64,000 bases of DNA from an uncultured Candidatus Peribacteria bacterium (GTDB lineage: Bacteria > Patescibacteriota > Gracilibacteria > UBA4473). Position numbers and translations under genes: made by a program. The stretch lies in assembly GCA_964344775.1 (NCBI GenBank), contig CAYFOO010000001.1, positions 13,087 to 77,086 on the forward strand, read 5' to 3'. The notes under the pieces are model-generated. The model made no database searches. It had not been told where the DNA came from and saw only the letters and a program-made list of their open reading frames with translations. This document shows positions 2,196-54,114 of the stretch, one piece after another (the first letter of the stretch is position 1; every line of letters starts with the position of its first letter).

Positions 2196-2804
2196 TCATT
2201 CTACATTCCGCATTCCGAGTTCCGCGTTTAAAAAATTTTCCATTTCCCTCGCTGCTTTCCCCCGATGCGACACCGCATTTTTTTCAAATTTCGTCATCGC
2301 CGAATAAACCTGATCTGATCCTTCTGGCACAAAAACCGCCGAAACCGGAATCCCTGGCTCCATCTCTGTAGCCAAATCCTCCAAAATCACTCCCGAAGTA
2401 GTTCCCAACACCACATTTTCAATATTTCGTACGGGATCAAAAAAAGCCATCGCAGAATAAAAGGTTGCTCGACGGTTTTCGACGCCATCCATGAGATTCA
2501 TAAATTTTTCCAGCCATTCTTCATCCGTACCAGAAGGAATCTCTCGCCGCGTCCGGAGTCCAAACTTCTCCGGAAAGGCCTCCAGAATAATACCAGAATC
2601 CTCCCCCAGCGTAGGCACCTGAAATTGGCGACCAAAATACTGAGCTTTCAAAAGTGCATTTGCTTCAAAAGTCATACCATCCTCCTCCACATCTGGAACA
2701 GAGGGAAAATCAGAAAGCAGTAAAAACTCAAAATCATCCCCAAAAAATTCCAGCATTTCTTGAGCCTTCCCTGTGTTTCCAGTAGCGAGAAGTATTTTTT
2801 TCAT
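2196..2804 (-). CDS. rdgB: non-canonical purine NTP pyrophosphatase (RdgB/Ham1 family)
   Basis: N-terminal LLATGNTGKAQEM motif and SHRGKA near the C-terminus. The last ~11 codons (NAELGMRNVE) are encoded by the heptamer array 2197..2231. Confidence 0.85.
   Translation of the reverse strand: MKKILLATGNTGKAQEMLEFFGDDFEFLLLSDFPSVPDVEEDGMTFEANALLKAQYFGRQFQVPTLGEDSGIILEAFPEKFGLRTRREIPSGTDEEWLEKFMNLMDGVENRRATFYSAMAFFDPVRNIENVVLGTTSGVILEDLATEMEPGIPVSAVFVPEGSDQVYSAMTKFEKNAVSHRGKAAREMENFLNAELGMRNVE
2197..2231. repeat. heptamer array CATTCTA CATTCCG CATTCCG AGTTCCG CGTTTAA
   Basis: Same family as 15360..15387, 15812..15839 and 42526..42560. This copy encodes the RdgB C-terminus. Confidence 0.75.
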
Positions 2805-3002
2805 AATTTTTTTGAAAAATTTTTAATTTTGTAATTTTTAATTTTATAAATAATTTTTTAAATCTTAATTTTTAAAGAAGAGTTTTAATTTAAATTTGTT
2901 TAGAATTTAAAAATTAGAGTTTATTTGACCATCGCCATTTGGCGAGGTTAGTCCGCCTCAAAGAGAGCGGTAGTAAAAATTTGTGCTTAAAAATTAAAAA
3001 TT
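2805..3002. repeat. AT-only composite heptamer repeat, copy A (contains a GC-module insertion)
   Basis: Shares an exact 38-mer (2816..2853 = 38095..38132) with copy B. Shares an exact 29-mer (2974..3002 = 36974..37002) with copy C. Confidence 0.8.
2927..2974. mobile_element. 48-nt GC-rich two-hairpin module inserted into AT-rich repeat copy A
   Basis: Copy C reads ...AAAAATTAGAAATTATTT|AAAAATTTGTGCTT... uninterrupted. Copy A has GACCATCGCCATTTGGCGAGGTTAGTCCGCCTCAAAGAGAGCGGTAGT at that junction. A sibling lies at 58617..58661. Confidence 0.6.
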
Positions 3003-35281: not shown

Positions 35282-35327
35282 TTAAAATTAGCACTCGGAT
35301 TATAGGAGTGCTAAAAAAGAAGTCAAA

Positions 35328-36863
35328 TTATTTTTTAACCACAGAATTGATCACCTCCAAATATGCTAAAATCGCCGCCCTCACAATATCACAATCCCCC
35401 ACTCGTGCGGTCAAAATTCGACCGTCATCAGTCTCCATCCGTACCTTTACGATCGCCTGTGCATCAAGCCCCGAAGTCACACTATCCATCTCGAAGTCGG
35501 TGAGTTTTCCGTGTTTGCCACAGAGTTCCTCAATTGCTTGATAGGCCGCATCGACCATCCCAGTTCCAGATTTTTCGGAAGTGACCGTTTTACCACTTTC
35601 GGTATTCTTCAAACTAACTTTTGCCTGCGGTGTCTGATCTTGACCAGAACTGACAGAAAAATCCACCAACTCCCAGAATCCACTTGGCTTTTTTTCACCC
35701 ATCAAAAATACGTCCAAATCTGCGTCCGTAATTTCCTTTTTCATATCCGCTAATTTTTTAAATTTCTCAAAAACCTCATTCAACTTTTCATCGGAAACTT
35801 GATAGCCAAGCTCATTCAAACGACTTTTGAGAGCTGCACGACCAGAATGTTTACCGAGCACGATTTCGGTTTTTTCGACTCCCACGGATTCAGGAGTAAG
35901 AATCTCATACGTTTCTTTGTGAGCCAACATTCCATGCTGATGGATTCCCGATTCATGGGCAAAGGCATTTCGTCCGACAATCGCTTTATTTGACTGCACT
36001 CTTTGTCCCGTGATTTGCTCAAGCAACTTGGAGGTTTTGTAGATCTCCGTAGTTTTGATCCCTGTCTCCAAATCATAAAAGTCCTTCCGAGTTCTCAAAG
36101 TCATCACCACTTCCTCCAGTGCCGCATTCCCAGCTCGCTCCCCTGCTCCATTGATCGTACACTCAATCTGTCGGGCTCCATTTTTGACTCCCGCGAGAGA
36201 GTTCGCTCCCGCAAGGCCCAAATCATTGTGACAATGAGTAGCAAAGATCACCTGGTCTGCATTTCGAACATTTAAAACTAAAAACCCTATCAATTCTCCA
36301 AACTCCTCCGGCGTGAGATATCCCACCGTATCCGGAATGTTGATGGTATCTGCTCCTGCTTCAATCGCCACTTCGATAATTTTTACGAGGAAATCACGAT
36401 CAGATCGTCCCGCATCTTCCGGAGAAAAATCCACTCGATCGCAAAGACTTTTCGCTAATTTCACGCCCTCCACTGCCATTTGCAAAACTTCTTCAGAAGA
36501 CTTCTTCAATTTGTATTCCATGTGGATCGGACTCGTCGCGATGAAGGTGTGAATCCGCGGTTTTTTGGCCAACTTCACTGCATCCCAGGCCGCTCGAATA
36601 TCCTTTTCTATTGTTCGTGCTAACCCACAAACTTCGGTAGTTTCCAAAGTCTTGGCAATCATCTCCACGGCTGCAAAATCATCCGGACTCGCTATCGGAA
36701 ATCCAGCCTCGATCACATCCACGCCCAGATTCTCCAGCTGCACAGCGAGACGAATCTTCTCTTCCAAATTCATAGAGAATCCCGGTGCCTGCTCCCCATC
36801 ACGCAGGGTGGTATCGAAGATTTTTACGTAATTATCGTTGTTCATAGTAGTTAAATTAGGCAA
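35328..36863 (-). CDS. leuA: 2-isopropylmalate synthase
   Basis: IFDTTLRDGEQAPG and HCHNDLGLA, plus a C-terminal LeuA regulatory domain. Confidence 0.92.
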   Translation of the reverse strand: MPNLTTMNNDNYVKIFDTTLRDGEQAPGFSMNLEEKIRLAVQLENLGVDVIEAGFPIASPDDFAAVEMIAKTLETTEVCGLARTIEKDIRAAWDAVKLAKKPRIHTFIATSPIHMEYKLKKSSEEVLQMAVEGVKLAKSLCDRVDFSPEDAGRSDRDFLVKIIEVAIEAGADTINIPDTVGYLTPEEFGELIGFLVLNVRNADQVIFATHCHNDLGLAGANSLAGVKNGARQIECTINGAGERAGNAALEEVVMTLRTRKDFYDLETGIKTTEIYKTSKLLEQITGQRVQSNKAIVGRNAFAHESGIHQHGMLAHKETYEILTPESVGVEKTEIVLGKHSGRAALKSRLNELGYQVSDEKLNEVFEKFKKLADMKKEITDADLDVFLMGEKKPSGFWELVDFSVSSGQDQTPQAKVSLKNTESGKTVTSEKSGTGMVDAAYQAIEELCGKHGKLTDFEMDSVTSGLDAQAIVKVRMETDDGRILTARVGDCDIVRAAILAYLEVINSVVKK

Positions 36864-37003
36864 TTTTTAATTTCCAATTTTTAATTTTTAAATAAATTTT
36901 AAATCTTAATTTTTAAGGTTTTATATTTTAGTGAAGTAATTTTAGTTTAAGATTTTAAAAATTAGAAATTATTTAAAAATTTGTGCTTAAAAATTAAAAA
37001 TTT
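36864..37003. repeat. AT-only composite heptamer repeat, copy C (empty site)
   Basis: CAATTTT TAATTTC CAATTTT TAATTTT TAAATAA ATTTTAA ATCTTAA TTTTTAA ..., ending in the 29-mer shared with copy A. Confidence 0.8.
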
Positions 37004-37007
37004 TCCC

Positions 37008-37069
37008 AAAAAATCGGCCTTTTTTGGCCGAGGTTCATCTTTTATTAATTTAGAAAAATCTACCTCGGC
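37008..37069 (-). promoter_or_regulatory. putative leu attenuator (antiterminator/terminator switch)
   Basis: GCCGAGG (37069..37063) is complementary to CCUCGGC (37033..37027). That segment overlaps the terminator stem UCGGCC-A6-GGCCGA (37031..37014), which is followed by U6 (37013..37008). Confidence 0.55.
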
Positions 37070-37116
37070 TCACGTACAAGTAACAACAGCAAGAAACCAA
37101 GTGTTAGATTTTTCAT
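37060..37116 (-). CDS. putative leucine leader peptide MKNLTLGFLLLLLVREPR
   Basis: 18 codons, 7 of them Leu and 5 consecutive. GGAG lies 4 nt upstream. The last codons form the 5' arm of an antiterminator that competes with a terminator hairpin just upstream of leuA. Confidence 0.55.
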   Translation of the reverse strand: MKNLTLGFLLLLLVREPR

Positions 37117-37124
37117 CTGTCTCC

Positions 37125-37152
37125 AGACTAGTGATTTAGCGTGTTTTGTCAA
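37125..37152 (-). promoter_or_regulatory. candidate promoter TTGACA-16-TAGTCT in front of the leu leader
   Basis: The -35 is at 37152..37147 and the -10 at 37130..37125. It would place the TSS at or within a few nt of the leader AUG. Confidence 0.35.
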
Positions 37153-37158
37153 ACAGGG

Positions 37159-37332
37159 TCACAATCCTAGGCGTAAAACATCATCTACTCCTCCAACAAT
37201 TATAACTCTTTCTGTTTCTGTTGCAGTCTTTTTTCTTGGGCTTTTTCCACTTACACACCCAAGTGCACACACATCTCTTACTACTTCTTTATAAAAACAG
37301 TCATCGCCACCTTTTTCTGCTTCTTCTGCCAT
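37159..37332 (-). CDS. possible unannotated 57-aa protein
   Basis: My own translation: MAEEAEKGGDDCFYKEVVRDVCALGCVSGKSPRKKTATETERVIIVGGVDDVLRLGL. It falls below the ORF-track size cutoff. Its composition is more protein-like than the competing plus-strand ORF 37221..37616. No domain recognised. Confidence 0.3.
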   Translation of the reverse strand: MAEEAEKGGDDCFYKEVVRDVCALGCVSGKSPRKKTATETERVIIVGGVDDVLRLGL

Positions 37333-37393
37333 TTTCAATTGTTTTAAAAAACTCTTGTTTTCCTAATTATATCAAACTTTTCTTCAACTTTTC

Positions 37394-37428
37394 CATCCCT
37401 ACAACTTACAACCTACAACTTTTACATT
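37394..37428. repeat. heptamer array CATCCCT ACAACTT ACAACCT ACAACTT TTACATT
   Basis: ACAACYT family. Confidence 0.75.
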
Positions 37429-37569
37429 CCACAATAAAACCACTCCCTCCGCCACCGATTTTTGTGTTTATAAAACACAAGGGGTATTTTTCCGAAAAAA
37501 GATTTGCACTCTTCATTTTTTCTTCTACAGTCGAAGTTAGTTCTTTTTTATTTCTTAATTTTATCAAAG

Positions 37570-38013
37570 ATGAACTCGTTGAACAAAGCTCAGATCATCG
37601 GAAACCTCACACGTGACCCTGATCTCAGGAAAACTCAGAACGACCAATCCGTATGTACGGTTGGGGTAGCCACTAACCGAAATTGGACGGACTCCAATGG
37701 CTCCAAGCATGAAGAAGCCGAATTCCACAATGTGGTTTGTTGGGGAAGATTGGCAGAAATCGTAGCCGAACGATTGAAAAAAGGCTCAAAAGTATTTTTT
37801 GAAGGACGCCTCAGAACTCGAAACTGGGAAGACGATGCCGGCATCAAACACTACCGAACAGAAATCGTGGCTGATGACATGATTATTCTTTCTCCCAGGA
37901 GTGGAGGAAGTGCTACTGGAGATGACAGTACAACAGAAAGCACGGAAGATAAACCAGTCAAAACAGAAGAACCACCCTCTGACGACATGCCGACGGACGA
38001 GGTGCCATTCTAA
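37570..38013 (+). CDS. ssb: single-stranded DNA-binding protein
   Basis: Start moved to MNSLNKAQIIGNLTRDP. OB-fold blocks and an acidic tail ending DEVPF. Confidence 0.9.
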   Translation: MNSLNKAQIIGNLTRDPDLRKTQNDQSVCTVGVATNRNWTDSNGSKHEEAEFHNVVCWGRLAEIVAERLKKGSKVFFEGRLRTRNWEDDAGIKHYRTEIVADDMIILSPRSGGSATGDDSTTESTEDKPVKTEEPPSDDMPTDEVPF

Positions 38014-38936: not shown

Positions 38937-41762
38937 ATGGAAACAGTGAAAAATCTTCGGGACGCATTTGTAGGAGTCTACGGCACTATGCCGTGGTGGA
39001 TGTGGATTATTGTGATTGTTGGAGGTATCTTGATATTTCTTTTGGGAAGGTTCCTGCTCAGATACTGGCACCGTAGACATGAACGAAATCAACTTGTCCA
39101 CCTACGTGTCACACTCCCCCGAAGTGATTCTAAACTGGATCAAGAAAAAAGAACCGAAAAAGACTTCCGGGAACAAATTGGAAAGGCCGAGCAGTTTTTT
39201 CGAGCACTCCATGAGACACGAGAACTCAACCTCTACAATATCTGGATCAAACGAACTATCTGGAAAAAGCCCCAGCTTTCCTTTGAATTACAGTTTGAAA
39301 AACGAGAATTAAGCTTCGTGATTGTTTGTGACCCGTACTATCAAAAGATTATTGATAAACAGATTACTTCTTTTTATCCGGATGCAGAGATTGAACTACT
39401 AAAACCAGAGGAACAAATAAATCTAAAAACAGAAGGCAGCTACCTAAATGGTTATTATATGTACACGGAGAACCCGTATTGGTTTCCGATCCAGACGTAC
39501 AAAAAAATTGAAGACGATGCCATTAACGATCTGGCCAACTCTTTTTCCAAGCTCACAAAAGAAGAAAAAGCCGTGGTACAGTTTGTAATCCATCCGAAAT
39601 CAAAAAAATGGCAAAAAAAAGCCGAGAAAGTGGCGACAGCCCTCTTCAAAGAAAAAGACACTCCAAGTGGGATTTTTGCCATTCCAGTACTGGGATTTGT
39701 ACTTCGACTCATCTGGTTGCCGTTTAAAATACTAGTTCGAGGATATGATCCACAAACAGACACACTCTCCGGAGAAGAAAAAGATTCTGGCGGCATCGTT
39801 CGAATGCTTGCGAGCAAGGAAGAAACATACAAAGCCATGGGAGAAAAAGCCGCTCAGTCCGGATACGATGCTACGATCCGGGTACTCGCTTCATCTCCAG
39901 ACAAAGCTCGAGTTCAAGAAATTTTGAACGGAATTTTTGTGTCGTTTAACGTATTTAAATCAAAAGGATCGAATCTGTTTGAGAACCGAAGGATTATACC
40001 TCTCAACCTGATTAACGCCCCACTTATTCATCATAATTTTCGTCTTCGACTTTTCTCTTTTTTGGAGAAAAAAAATCTGCTTTGTTCGGAAGAATTAGCC
40101 ACCATGTTTCACTTCCCGGATTCACGGTACAACCGAATCCCTACGATTAAATGGCTCACGTACAAAGTGCTCCCTCCACCAATCGATCTGCCGAAAGAAG
40201 GAGTTGTACTCGGGAATTCGGTTTATCGAGGTATTACCAAACCTGTTCGATTTCTCCGAGACGATCGAACCAGACATCACTACTGTATCGGAAAATCTGG
40301 GTCTGGTAAATCCGTCCTCCTCTGGAATATGGCCGTTCAGGATATTAAAAATGGTGATGGCGTAGGACTGATCGACCCGCATGGAGATCTGGTAGATGAC
40401 GTACTCACCTGCGTACCAAAAGAACGAGCCAAAGATGTCATCGTTTTTGATCCAGGAGATATCCAACGCCCGATGGGCCTCAATATTCTCGAAGCCAAAA
40501 CAGAAGAAGAAAAAGACCGTGCCTCGCTCGATGCGATGGAGATCTTCATTAAACTTTTTGGAAATGAAATCTTCGGACCGCGTATCCAGCACTATTTCCG
40601 AAACGGATGTCTGACACTCATGGACGACGAAGAAGAAGGAGCAAGTTTGATCGATATCCCACGACTTTTTATCGATGATGATTATCAGCAGTATAAAGTA
40701 TCCAAAGTAAAAAATGTAATGGTACGAGCTTTTTGGGAAAACGAAATGGCACAGACCGGAGATCGAGAAAAACAAGAGATGATCCCCTACTTCACTTCAA
40801 AATTTGGACCGTTCGTCACCAACACAACAATGCGTAACATCATTGGACAAACAAAGTCATCTTTCAATATCCGAGAAGCCATGGATAATCGAAAGGTTGT
40901 TCTGATGAACCTATCCAAAGGTAAGATTGGGGATATCAATGCTCAGCTCCTCGGACTGATCCTGGTGGCAAGAATAAACATGGCTGCTATGGGACGATAT
41001 GATATTCCAAAGGAAGAACGTAAAGATTTTTTCTTCTACGTGGATGAGTTCCAAAATTTTGCCACGGATACCTTTGCCGCGATTCTTTCCGAGGCTCGTA
41101 AATACCGACTCTGTCTGATTATGGCTCACCAGTACATCGCCCAGCTCACCGAAGGAGAAGGTGGTGGTGGAGACACAAAAATTAGGGATGCCGTTTTTGG
41201 TAACGTAGGGACAATGATGAGTTTTAAGGTCGGTGCTGATGATGCGGAATATCTCGAAAAAGAATACTCTCCAACACTTTCTGCTCAGGATATTCTCAGT
41301 ATCGCAAACTACAAGGCCTACGTGAAACTGAATATCAAAAACACCACTTCTAGGCCGTTTTCGATGGAGACACTCTACGACCCAAGCATGAAAAATGAAA
41401 AAGTAGCCGAGGTGATCAAAAAATACTCTCGAATGAAATTTGGACGAAAGAAAGAATTCGTGGATGCAGAGATCGAAGCCCGAATGGGAGTAGGTGGTGG
41501 AAATAACGGTGGAAAAAACGTCATGAAACAGCTCGAAGGTGCCCCACCTATTGAAGCACAAATTCCTGCCAAAGAACCCCCTCCTACCGAAACTGAAGTT
41601 CCTCTCACTCTTGCAAACACCGTTTCACCACAAGAAGAACAAATCGTCGCTGAGGAAACTACGGAAAACGAATCAGAAACACCAAATACAGAACTAACCG
41701 AGACGGCAACAGAAACTCCTATCGCAAAAACAGAGGAAAAGAAAACAGAATCTGTGGGGTAA
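38937..41762 (+). CDS. membrane-anchored P-loop ATPase, VirD4/TraD/TraG (type IV coupling protein)-like
   Basis: N-terminal TM helix, Walker A CIGKSGSGKSVLL, Walker B FFFYVDEFQNF, then AHQYIAQL. The T/E/P-rich C-terminal tail has low complexity. Confidence 0.65.
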   Translation: METVKNLRDAFVGVYGTMPWWMWIIVIVGGILIFLLGRFLLRYWHRRHERNQLVHLRVTLPRSDSKLDQEKRTEKDFREQIGKAEQFFRALHETRELNLYNIWIKRTIWKKPQLSFELQFEKRELSFVIVCDPYYQKIIDKQITSFYPDAEIELLKPEEQINLKTEGSYLNGYYMYTENPYWFPIQTYKKIEDDAINDLANSFSKLTKEEKAVVQFVIHPKSKKWQKKAEKVATALFKEKDTPSGIFAIPVLGFVLRLIWLPFKILVRGYDPQTDTLSGEEKDSGGIVRMLASKEETYKAMGEKAAQSGYDATIRVLASSPDKARVQEILNGIFVSFNVFKSKGSNLFENRRIIPLNLINAPLIHHNFRLRLFSFLEKKNLLCSEELATMFHFPDSRYNRIPTIKWLTYKVLPPPIDLPKEGVVLGNSVYRGITKPVRFLRDDRTRHHYCIGKSGSGKSVLLWNMAVQDIKNGDGVGLIDPHGDLVDDVLTCVPKERAKDVIVFDPGDIQRPMGLNILEAKTEEEKDRASLDAMEIFIKLFGNEIFGPRIQHYFRNGCLTLMDDEEEGASLIDIPRLFIDDDYQQYKVSKVKNVMVRAFWENEMAQTGDREKQEMIPYFTSKFGPFVTNTTMRNIIGQTKSSFNIREAMDNRKVVLMNLSKGKIGDINAQLLGLILVARINMAAMGRYDIPKEERKDFFFYVDEFQNFATDTFAAILSEARKYRLCLIMAHQYIAQLTEGEGGGGDTKIRDAVFGNVGTMMSFKVGADDAEYLEKEYSPTLSAQDILSIANYKAYVKLNIKNTTSRPFSMETLYDPSMKNEKVAEVIKKYSRMKFGRKKEFVDAEIEARMGVGGGNNGGKNVMKQLEGAPPIEAQIPAKEPPPTETEVPLTLANTVSPQEEQIVAEETTENESETPNTELTETATETPIAKTEEKKTESVG

Positions 41763-48213: not shown

Positions 48214-48240
48214 AAAAAGTGCCCACATGGGCACTTTTTT
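48214..48240 (+). terminator. intrinsic terminator of 47396..48193
   Basis: AAAAAGTGCCC-ACAT-GGGCACTTTTT, a perfect stem with flanking A and T runs. Confidence 0.8.
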
Positions 48241-48284
48241 AAAATTTGATTTTTGCACTTTTTGAAATAGGATTCGCCCTGCTC

Positions 48285-51786: not shown

Positions 51787-54114
51787 ATGTTTTGGGCTGA
51801 CCGCATCGCTGACGAAATTCTTGCCGCACATCCTGACCAGGAAGAATTTATCGTGCGTGACGAAAAAACACTCTCTGGACGAGTACATGTAGGATCCCTG
51901 CGAGGAGTTGTAATCCACGGCCTGATTGCTCAAGTACTGAATGAAAAAGGGAAAAAAGCTAAATTTATTTTTGAGTTTAACGACTTTGATCCCATGGACG
52001 GACTCCCAATCTACCTGGATGAAACAAAGTTCGCCCCAGAAATGGGAAAACCACTCAAAAATGTCCCCTCCCCTGATGCCAACCACAAAAACTACGCCGA
52101 ATACTTTGGAGATGAATTTTTGGGAGTAATTCAAGAGCTTGGCTTTGATCCAGAAATCCCTCGAGCATCTGGACTCTATGAAAGCGGACAAGTGAATAAT
52201 TGGATCCAACTAGCCCTGGAGAAAAAAGATGATATCCGAGAAATCTACCGAGAAGTATCTGGCTCTCAAAAAAGTCCACACTGGTCCCCCGTACAAGTAA
52301 TCTGTGAAAACTGTGGGCGTGTGGGAACTACGGATGTGAAAGATTTTGATGGGAAAGAGGTAACCTACACCTGCGAAAAACATAAAGTAAAATGGGCCGA
52401 AGGTTGTGGCCATGAAGGAAAAGTTTCTCCCTTCGATGGAAATGCCAAACTTCTCTGGAAAGTAGAATGGCCGGCTAAATGGGCAGCTTACAAAGTAGAT
52501 GTAGAAGGGTCTGGAAAAGACCACAATGCTTCCGGAGGAAGTCATGAGATCGGAGAACACATCTGTGAAAAAGTTTTTAACACTACTGTGCCCTTCAACA
52601 TCCCCTATGAATTCTTTTTAATTGGTGGAAAAAAAATGTCCTCTTCAAAAGGATCCGGAGCTACGGCTCGAGAGGTAGCGGATACCCTCCCGCCAGAATT
52701 GTTGAGATTTTTGATGATCCGGACAGAACCGAGAAAACCGATTGAATTTAATCCAGAAGGAGAAACCATTCCCCGACTTTTTGATGAGCACGATCGAGCC
52801 GCAAATGAATATTTTTTGGGTGAAAAAAGTACTTTTCCGGATCTGGGAAGATGTTTCTTTCTTTCTCAAATAGATCTGAATAAAAAGCCGGTAGAAAAAT
52901 ATCTGCCGAGATTTTCAAAGCTCGTTTTTGCGATCCAAATCCCTCGTCTGGATATCCAGAAAGAAGTTGCCGAATGGAAAGGATCACCACTTACAAAAGA
53001 TGACCTCGAAGAATTAGAACTAAGAATAAAATATGCCAAACGTTGGATCGAAGACTTCGCTCCAGAAAACTACCTCTTCAAAATCTCTGACGAAATACCT
53101 GAGAGAGCCGACGAATTAACCGATGCACAAAAAGACGTACTCAAAAAAATGGCCGAACAATTGGCTCGAGTCGAATGGGAAGGCGAAAATATCCATGGTG
53201 CACTACACGGAATAAAAGAAGAATCTGGACTCTCACCACGGGAGTTTTTTGCTACCATTTATTTACCAATTTTGGGACGAGATTCTGGTCCACAAGCTGG
53301 ATGGTTGATCTCTGCTCTAGAAAAAGAGTGGGTACTCAAAAGATTTGAAGAAGTGAGTAAAAAGAGTAAAAAATCAATACTTTCGTCCCTTGAAGAGTTA
53401 GCAGGAAAAACAAAAGATGAAAAAATATTCCATATTGCCCCCGCATTTTTTGAGAAATTCCCAGAAGCTAAATTGGCAATTATTACGGTCAAAAAAACAG
53501 ACAATTCTACAAAAAATCCCGATATAGAAAAATTCCTCCGTGAAACTGAAAAAGCCTTTTCTTTAGAGGGAGAAATTCCTACCCATCCACGAATAGAATG
53601 CTGGAGAGAGGCTTATAGATCTTTTGGGATGAAACCAAGTGAGTTTCGCTCTTCTATCGAAGGTCTAGTAAGAAGAGTAAAAGCAAACAAACCACTCCCA
53701 CTGATTAATCCTCTAGTTGATATTTATAATGCTATTTCAATTAAGCATCTCCTCCCAGCAGGAGGGGAAGATTTGGATAAAATTGAAGGAGCTCTACAAC
53801 TTAATTTTGCTGAGGGGACGGAAGAATTTTTTAGTATTGGAAGTGAAAAAAATGAGCCTCCTAAAAAAGGAGAACTGGTCTATCAAGATGATAAAAATAT
53901 AGTTTGCCGTTCGTGGAATTGGAGGGAAGCAGATAGGACAAAATTAACACCAAAAACAACAGAAGCAGTCTTAATTTTGGAAGCTTTGCCACCAACAAAA
54001 ACATCCGAGCTAGAATCTGCGGCAAAAGAGCTAGAAGAAAAAATAAATAAATTTTTAGGTGGAGAAATCAAAATAGAAATACTTTCTAATCAAAAAAATC
54101 ATTGCTACCTTTAA
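51787..54114 (+). CDS. lysK: class I lysyl-tRNA synthetase fused to a C-terminal B3/4-like domain
   Basis: The HIGH-like GRVHVGSLRG and the KMSKS-like KMSSSKG lie in the first ~520 aa. The last ~230 aa contain SSIEGLVRRV...LPLINPLVDIYNAISIKHLLPAGGEDLDKIEG, which resembles the PheRS-beta B3/4 family. Confidence 0.8.
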   Translation: MFWADRIADEILAAHPDQEEFIVRDEKTLSGRVHVGSLRGVVIHGLIAQVLNEKGKKAKFIFEFNDFDPMDGLPIYLDETKFAPEMGKPLKNVPSPDANHKNYAEYFGDEFLGVIQELGFDPEIPRASGLYESGQVNNWIQLALEKKDDIREIYREVSGSQKSPHWSPVQVICENCGRVGTTDVKDFDGKEVTYTCEKHKVKWAEGCGHEGKVSPFDGNAKLLWKVEWPAKWAAYKVDVEGSGKDHNASGGSHEIGEHICEKVFNTTVPFNIPYEFFLIGGKKMSSSKGSGATAREVADTLPPELLRFLMIRTEPRKPIEFNPEGETIPRLFDEHDRAANEYFLGEKSTFPDLGRCFFLSQIDLNKKPVEKYLPRFSKLVFAIQIPRLDIQKEVAEWKGSPLTKDDLEELELRIKYAKRWIEDFAPENYLFKISDEIPERADELTDAQKDVLKKMAEQLARVEWEGENIHGALHGIKEESGLSPREFFATIYLPILGRDSGPQAGWLISALEKEWVLKRFEEVSKKSKKSILSSLEELAGKTKDEKIFHIAPAFFEKFPEAKLAIITVKKTDNSTKNPDIEKFLRETEKAFSLEGEIPTHPRIECWREAYRSFGMKPSEFRSSIEGLVRRVKANKPLPLINPLVDIYNAISIKHLLPAGGEDLDKIEGALQLNFAEGTEEFFSIGSEKNEPPKKGELVYQDDKNIVCRSWNWREADRTKLTPKTTEAVLILEALPPTKTSELESAAKELEEKINKFLGGEIKIEILSNQKNHCYL

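Follow-up and report, generated by a model that had tools for sequence, protein, structure and literature searches.

Does a Candidate Phyla Radiation (CPR) bacterium adjust the synthesis of leucine to its supply and, if so, by what device? The question is raised by a short, leucine-rich open reading frame (ORF), followed by a hairpin, that lies ahead of leuA on the minus strand of a 64,000-nt stretch of contig CAYFOO010000001.1 from an uncultured Candidatus Peribacteria bacterium; this whole stretch is called the window below. An initial annotation, made from the sequence of the window, had proposed leader-peptide attenuation at this site. Taking together the sequence elements, the competing structures that they form in silico, and the way in which these are conserved and covary among Peribacteria, we consider it very likely that the element is a ribosome-mediated (leader-peptide) transcription attenuator, which would tune leuA to the supply of charged tRNA-Leu.

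The leader ORF runs from an ATG at 37116..37114 to a TAG at 37062..37060 (minus strand), and its peptide contains seven leucines, five of them consecutive, all at the coordinates first assigned to them. With leucine making up 8.9% of residues in the genes of the window, at least seven leucines in 17 residues have a probability of p ~4e-4. Five different Leu codons, out of the six available, appear in the leader, which shows no preference for rare ones. Outside the annotated genes of the 64 kb, it is the sole ATG-initiated mini-ORF in which a run of one amino acid is followed by a hairpin and a U-run. It lies on the same strand as leuA, 214 nt from the leuA ATG at 36845. This ATG replaces the TTG at 36863 that had originally been taken as the start of leuA, and is the likelier of the two since the homologous proteins begin with M-x-x-x-NYVKIFDTT.

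The RNA structure of the region follows a four-segment layout. The complementarity between GCCGAGG (37069..37063), which is formed by the last codons of the ORF, and CCUCGGC (37033..37027) had been described in the initial annotation, together with a terminator hairpin at 37031..37014 and its U6 tract at 37013..37008; both are present, and a consensus scan lists the same hairpin independently as terminator-like and also picks up TTGACA, 16 nt of spacer and TAGTCT upstream. Missed at that stage was a further helix, a strong hairpin pairing 37114..37093 with 37073..37053, which appears in the minimum free energy (MFE) fold as well as in the centroid fold and holds the Leu run in its loop. With it the layout is complete: segments 1:2 form an anti-antiterminator, 2:3 an antiterminator and 3:4 the terminator, so that the full design of the classical enterobacterial logic, which had been invoked from the outset, is found in the window. 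The leader region is more stable than 200 out of 200 dinucleotide shuffles (z = -3.5). At -11.4 kcal/mol, the 7-bp core of the antiterminator is about as stable as the terminator (-11.2 kcal/mol), and both helices use 37031..37027.

The ribosome was then modelled as a stretch of 30 nt unavailable for pairing, an assumed footprint, and base-pair probabilities were computed for successive positions. In the naked RNA the terminator of the window has a probability of 0.98. Placing the A site on Leu codon 9, 10, 11 or 12 lowers this value to 0.00, 0.03, 0.05 and 0.28, respectively, and placing it on the stop codon gives 0.88. In the stalled state GCCGAGGU (37069..37062) pairs with 37034..37027 (ACCUCGGC), and AUUUUU (37059..37054) pairs with 37042..37037 (AAAAGA). 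When the 43 nt between footprint and terminator (segment 2 and the spacer) were shuffled, none of 200 sequences gave a terminator probability as low, with a median of 0.94. These computations support a pair of mutually exclusive helices between which the position of the ribosome would select. The proposed rule, that stalling favors the antiterminator and arrival at the UAG favors the terminator, had been put forward together with the suggestion to fold the RNA and look for two exclusive structures; the folds do show the competition.

From these elements we infer where the transcript starts, that the ORF is translated, that ribosomes stall in it, and what the regulatory outcome would be. A sigma-70-type promoter (TTGACA, 16-nt spacer, TAGTCT) would start the transcript about 0-3 nt before the AUG, with leaderless translation being probable. 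When leucine is scarce, the ribosome would stall on Leu codons 9-12 and hold segment 1; segments 2:3 could then pair as the antiterminator, the terminator stem would be blocked, and polymerase would read through an AT-rich spacer into leuA. When leucine is plentiful, the ribosome would reach the UAG and cover segment 2, and the 3:4 hairpin with its U6 tract would end transcription at ~37008. In the absence of translation, segments 1:2 would pair and the terminator would likewise form.

In related genomes, the initial annotation had named a conserved mini-ORF with terminator upstream of leuA as the thing to look for. The identity of LeuA homologues declines gradually from 82% to 55%, and their source names are Peregrinibacteria, Gracilibacteria and Patescibacteria; Peribacteria are a class within Candidatus Peregrinibacteriota (CPR). 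The closest genome among the matches listed is an uncultured Candidatus Peribacteria metagenome-assembled genome (locus L001, LeuA 84% identical). In a comparative set of 14 Peribacteria leuA loci, the window plus 13 that were fetched, a homologous Leu-run mini-ORF of 15-19 codons with a terminator lies upstream of leuA in eight, the window included. These eight divide between two clades that lie well apart in the LeuA tree, with LeuA identities from 84% down to 68%. Runs of 3-6 leucines occur in all eight leaders, and Leu positions are kept through synonymous codons (for example, TTG CTG TTG in the window aligns with CTC CTG CTC in L001). In each of the eight, a hairpin with a U-run begins 26-38 nt past the stop codon, and the mini-ORF adjoins leuA everywhere except in L001, where one PF05635 gene intervenes. 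At the loci scored negative, L092 has a Leu-rich ORF with a TTG start 290 nt upstream of leuA, which overlaps the apparent terminator of the preceding gene, and L085 has a possible remnant, TTG TTA CTT TTG, with neither ATG nor terminator. Separately, at L081 (2875..2987) a hairpin GGGGAGAA...UUCUCCCC abuts the terminator, and a second possible mini-ORF (AUGAUACAUGUUCUUCAAAGAUUUCUCCCCUGA) extends into the terminator arm.

The same three-state behavior in silico was obtained for seven of the eight loci. In these seven, the terminator probability is 0.62-1.00 in free RNA, at most 0.05 with a stalled ribosome (about 0.2 in L001) and at least 0.83 once the ribosome has reached the stop codon; compared with shuffled sequences, their antiterminator effect ranks within the lowest 0-4%. 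Moreover, the antiterminator helices diverge in sequence yet stay complementary, reading GCCGAGG:CCUCGGC in the window, CAAGUGGC:GCCGCUUG in L091 and UCGAGCGGUU:AACUGCUUGA in L090; in L084 the motif GAGCGG is present at the end of the ORF and again in the 3' arm of the terminator, and in L001 the anti-antiterminator (1:2) helix is kept despite changed bases. Within a clade of five sequences, 95% of the antiterminator cells are paired and three of the 12 pairs have changed on both sides; in a control in which the partner strand was slid by 1-3 columns, 17-46% were paired. A covariance model built from this five-sequence clade alone finds the element of the window (37116..37008, 27.3 bits, rough E ~8e-4) as well as that of L001 (24.2 bits), and these two are the best non-training matches in 202 kb. 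Conservation of the kind asked for is thus seen in eight of 14 loci, with the in-silico switch in seven of the eight and a covariance match across clades, and it supports the interpretation given in the initial annotation.

Table 1. Features of the leuA leader region in the window, and leader peptides of the related loci.
Feature	Position	Strand	Basis
-35 box TTGACA, leader promoter	37147..37152	minus	sequence; recurs in homologous loci
-10-like hexamer TAGTCT, 16 nt past -35, 8 nt before AUG	37125..37130	minus	sequence; recurs in homologues
Leader ORF, 18 codons + UAG, peptide MKNLTLGFLLLLLVREPR	37060..37116	minus	sequence read and homologues
Five-Leu-codon run, codons 9-13 (TTG CTG TTG TTA CTT), proposed stalling site	37078..37092	minus	sequence read
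Segment 1, 5' strand of anti-antiterminator hairpin, ORF start	37093..37114	minus	MFE structures; partner 37073..37053
Segment 2, ORF end, stop codon and AUUUUUC; partner segment 1 or 3	37053..37073	minus	folding
Segment 3, 3' strand of antiterminator (AAAAGA..ACCUCGGC), overlapping terminator 5' arm	37027..37042	minus	folding
Predicted intrinsic terminator UCGGCC-AAAAAA-GGCCGA, then UUUUUU	37008..37031	minus	sequence, terminator scan, folding
AT-rich palindromic spacer, 162 nt, terminator to leuA	36846..37007	minus	inverted repeat, folding
leuA, 2-isopropylmalate synthase, gene proposed to be regulated	35328..36845	minus	Pfam HMGL-like, HCS_D2, LeuA_dimer; homologues
Leader peptide, L001: MKNLSLNLLLLSLASRSR			
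Leader peptide, L081: MKSHTLGTLLLTSLI			
Leader peptide, L084: MKNTLLTLLLLRLEYRAV			
Leader peptide, L086: MKNFSLLLLLTLEIRAV			
Leader peptide, L089: MNSLLTSSLLLSRFARAV			
Leader peptide, L090: MKQNFLFLLLLLLKSFRAV			
Leader peptide, L091: MFSKIIPLLLILLEEIQVA			

How translation of the leader would begin is suggested by its promoter. A TTGACx -35 box lies 35-39 nt from the leader AUG in seven of the eight loci, and in the same number a spacer of 16-17 nt separates this box from a -10-like hexamer, with a gap of 7-11 nt between hexamer and AUG. Given the usual distance from the -10 element to the transcription start, this arrangement would imply a 5' untranslated region (5'UTR) of ~0-5 nt across the loci and of about 0-3 nt in the window. 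Since the promoter lies as close as 7-11 nt before the AUG, the best reading is that the leader mRNA is probably leaderless or nearly so. A nearly leaderless transcript from TTGACA-16-TAGTCT had earlier been offered as an alternative, and the recurrence of the promoter spacing makes it the better-supported start. Shine-Dalgarno (SD) motifs (GGAG, GAGG or AGGA at -20 to -4) precede three of 40 genes in the window, compared with 13% of random positions, and because they are rarer at gene starts than at random positions, SD pairing is not the way in which this organism starts translation. The spacing of a GGAG ahead of the leader AUG, originally raised as a caveat, is therefore moot in a genome that almost never uses such sequences. 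The regions upstream of the 40 gene starts looked at are A/T-rich.

Several points weigh against an operating attenuator in the window. The terminator has only a short stem (6 bp, ~ -11 kcal/mol), as the initial annotation had already cautioned, and the antiterminator is no stabler than the terminator, so that the outcome would depend on kinetics; all functional statements made here derive from thermodynamic models with an assumed footprint of 30 nt. The -10 hexamer TAGTCT is weak, with three of six consensus matches. A same-strand ORF (37332..37159) precedes the leader with no terminator between them, and transcripts reading through from it would not be leaderless; same-strand upstream ORFs could be a source of such read-through in the window, L001, L084, L086 and L090. 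The comparative sample is small, with 14 loci and a covariation count from five sequences. Occurrence is also patchy, as six of the 14 loci (L082, L083, L085, L087, L088 and L092) are without the leader, and three of these, L082, L083 and L085, are close relatives with LeuA 75-78% identical. Between their ssb and leuA genes, L082 and L083 contain one additional gene, and in L087 and L088 leuA is fused into an upstream operon with no leader. At L081 the ORF and terminator are present, and no antiterminator capable of removing the terminator was found there by hand or by folding (terminator probability under stall, 0.81). Finally, the window and L001 have a palindromic spacer between terminator and leuA, with the PF05635 gene in addition in L001, and a second promoter within this spacer could bypass the attenuator.

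A rival reading, which we regard as unlikely, is that the leader is real in the family and is bypassed, has decayed or works differently in the genome of the window. Its variants include a promoter inside the 162-nt palindrome, processing at the long AU hairpin that uncouples leuA from the leader, and translational or Rho-dependent control. The distance from terminator to leuA does lend this idea some weight, since only the window (162 nt) and L001 (546 nt) depart from the 12-34 nt of the other relatives, and the spacer, an imperfect palindrome whose arms of 48 nt lie at 36862-36909 and 36955-37002, would form a strong RNA hairpin (-24.7 kcal/mol, z = -4.3). The persistence of ORF and terminator at L081 with no recognizable antiterminator points the same way, and the frequent losses among close relatives show that the element is dispensable. 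Set against this, no sigma-70-like site of the minus strand reached 9 of 12 matches between 37007 and 36846 in a promoter scan, the ORF, the Leu run and the four segments are all intact, and the predicted switch of the window is the cleanest of the eight (0.98 free, at most 0.05 on codons 9-11, 0.88 at the stop codon), unmatched by any of the 200 shuffles. In this genome the spacer is part of the 5'UTR of leuA and lies outside the conserved attenuator.

A second possibility, which we judge to be very improbable, is that the mini-ORF encodes a functional small hydrophobic peptide, such as a membrane peptide or toxin, and that the hairpin is simply its terminator. In favor of this, the relatives retain an open reading frame whose MKN start and hydrophobic core are conserved, and a separate promoter and terminator accompany every copy. 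However, leucine accounts for 49 of the 142 residues in the eight peptides, compared with 26 for isoleucine, valine, phenylalanine and alanine combined, whereas a membrane segment would accept any hydrophobic residue, and the core of ~10 residues is too short to span a membrane. Positions other than leucine drift freely. The C-terminal codons owe their conservation to the RNA, in which they pair with the terminator arm. A functional peptide would also leave unexplained why the end of the ORF is complementary to the 5' arm of the terminator in seven of eight loci, and why the element is always located directly upstream of leuA, in the same orientation, and nowhere else in the 317 kb that were scanned.

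In that scan the window and the 13 other loci were searched on both strands for ATG-initiated ORFs, 10-30 codons long, that contain three or more consecutive leucines and five or more in total; it returned 36 mini-ORFs, or ~0.03 per 300 nt. Among the 36, the eight leuA leaders alone precede a hairpin with a U-run. Applied to the regions ahead of leuA in 79 loci of other phyla among the matches listed, the same detector gave no hit. At L081, L089 and L091 the gene upstream of the leader is divergent, and the terminator can thus belong only to the mini-ORF. A chance ORF beside an ordinary terminator, for example that of ORF 37332..37159, is effectively refuted by the conservation data, for although Leu-run mini-ORFs do arise by chance, as the 36 in 317 kb attest, and hairpins with T-runs are common in an AT-rich genome, the other 28 Leu-run ORFs are not followed by a terminator, the leader ORFs are homologous across clades, three loci have no co-directional upstream gene to terminate, and eight hits at 14 orthologous positions have a binomial probability of ~1e-8 at 0.03 per 300 nt.

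The surroundings of leuA suggest how far control by the attenuator would extend. In the window leuA is flanked by dnaK downstream and by a divergent ssb upstream. Only 64 nt separate leuA from dnaK, and within them lies a near-consensus promoter (35299..35326, minus strand; TTGACT, 16-nt spacer, TATAAT, 11 of 12 matches), and since dnaK has a promoter of its own, leuA is probably monocistronic and the sole controlled unit in the window. Downstream of leuA lies leuC in L084 and L086, joined by leuD in L086. For leuC of the window, the absence of a comparable leader was noted at the beginning and is upheld: neither a leader peptide nor a same-strand leuD following leuC was found, and upstream there is only the terminator of the preceding gene (GTGCCCACATGGGCAC then T6; 48220..48241, plus strand, 45 nt before leuC), which ends a 286-aa gene of unknown function. 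No other candidate leaders were found within the window.

The spacer between terminator and leuA is conserved with L001 alone (2458..2525 and 2870..3000 of that locus), where ~70 nt are nearly identical, so that it is better conserved than the leader. A gene of 119 aa from the PF05635 family (23S_rRNA_IVP, the 23S rRNA intervening-sequence protein family) sits exactly between the arms of the palindrome in L001. Neither the window nor any other locus has a further copy of the spacer. With regard to its organization, the spacer looks like an intervening-sequence-like or mobile cassette, of which the stem in the window would be 'empty'. The same-strand ORF between ssb and the leader (37159..37332, minus strand) encodes 57 aa behind a promoter-like site with a TG-extended TATAAT (37395..37366) and gave no Pfam match. 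Its counterpart in L001 (2171..2335) encodes 54 aa and shares the motif D-x-x-F-[YW]-[KR]-E-V-[VI]-x-D, with an overall similarity that is insignificant (E = 0.45); the 57-aa ORF may be a small conserved gene.

Two other ORFs of the window deserve mention. The first (51787..54114, plus strand, 775 aa) joins a class I lysyl-tRNA synthetase domain (PF01921) to a C-terminal B3/4 domain (PF03483), an unusual combination; Pfam otherwise assigns B3/4 to the beta subunit of PheRS. The second (38937..41762, plus strand, 941 aa) adjoins ndk and ssb and has weak matches to T4SS-DNA_transf, TrwB_AAD_bind and TraG-D_C, families of type IV secretion coupling proteins.

Bacteria of the CPR/Patescibacteria are usually described as metabolically minimal and symbiont-like and, to our knowledge, almost nothing is known about their gene regulation. 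Full-text searches of an open-access library gave no relevant report of leader-peptide attenuation in CPR, Patescibacteria or Peregrinibacteria, in agreement with what the initial annotation had supposed. We lean somewhat towards a lineage-wide Peribacteria family of classical ribosome-mediated attenuators with a leaderless leader peptide, in a genome essentially without SD sites. In that case no earlier cis-regulatory sensor of an amino acid would have been described from CPR bacteria, and the family would be direct evidence that transcription and translation are coupled tightly enough for attenuation in ultra-small cells. Leucine biosynthesis would then be actively regulated and not merely retained: a conserved Leu-sensing attenuator would mean that at least Peribacteria tune amino-acid synthesis to supply, with the ribosome following close behind the polymerase. 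The attenuation mechanism itself is textbook and our understanding of it is unchanged; the finding is best filed as a family-level addition, that is, a known mechanism in a group for which the searches of the open-access library gave no previous report. In practical terms, the alignment can serve as a seed for a new RNA family that was missed by Rfam annotation, and the compact element of ~110 nt offers an experimental handle on uncultivable organisms by way of cell-free systems.

Among known systems, the enterobacterial attenuators of leu (leuL), trp, his and thr consist of four segments and a run of cognate codons, and the position of the ribosome picks the structure; these leaders have a 5'UTR with an SD site, and the leu leader controls a leuABCD operon. 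The Peribacteria element shares with the enterobacterial leu leader the 1:2 / 2:3 / 3:4 segment logic and the consecutive cognate codons, but differs from it in that the start in the window is probably leaderless and leuA alone would be controlled. The Rfam Leu_leader model does not match the window or its relatives: the window gave no Rfam match at the gathering score, a search of 36700..37600 at E values up to 10 returned noise, with no leader family and no T-box, and a search of seven relatives at E values up to 1 likewise returned no leader family. T-boxes, the usual form of leu/ilv control in Firmicutes, bind uncharged tRNA directly and independently of translation to choose between terminator and antiterminator. 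A T-box leucine riboswitch likewise senses the charging of tRNA-Leu upstream of leucine biosynthesis genes, as is proposed for Peribacteria; the element of the window, however, is too small for a T-box and has neither a specifier loop nor a T-box sequence.

Upstream ORFs rich in codons for branched-chain amino acids, associated with the ilvB-II and ilvB-OMG motifs of various phyla, have been proposed as attenuators (PMC10272879), and transcription attenuation has been proposed for flavobacterial leader peptides as well (PMC9723704). Both resemble the Peribacteria leaders in being conserved upstream ORFs with branched-chain codons and proposed attenuation. In contrast to the Peribacteria leaders, the ilvB-type attenuators precede ilvB and belong to different RNA families, and none has been reported from CPR/Patescibacteria.

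Since the Peribacteria leader is probably leaderless and its genome hardly uses SD sequences, its closest analogues are the leaderless leuA leaders of Actinobacteria. In Streptomyces lividans, the leaderless leuA leader peptide LeuL1 (MRFGLLLLSCRGEGL) has no ribosome-binding site and attenuation has been proposed (PMC8079986); cg0303/leuA of Corynebacterium glutamicum, again with a leaderless leader peptide, is the second actinobacterial case (PMC3890552). The leuA leaders of S. lividans and other Actinobacteria are reported to be without a typical Rho-independent terminator (PMC8079986), whereas a hairpin with a U-run follows all eight Peribacteria leaders. There is no sequence homology between the two groups, which belong to unrelated phyla, and the actinobacterial transcription starts are supported by RNA-seq, whereas that of Peribacteria is placed from promoter spacing only. 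In both groups a short Leu-run ORF lies directly upstream of a stand-alone leuA, with peptides of 12-15 aa in Actinobacteria and 15-19 aa in Peribacteria and a similarly placed Leu run; both have no 5'UTR and no ribosome-binding site, if the predicted start in Peribacteria is correct, and in both ribosome-mediated attenuation is proposed. The Peribacteria leaders would thus provide a second, phylogenetically remote case, after Actinobacteria, of attenuation from leaderless, SD-free leader ORFs.

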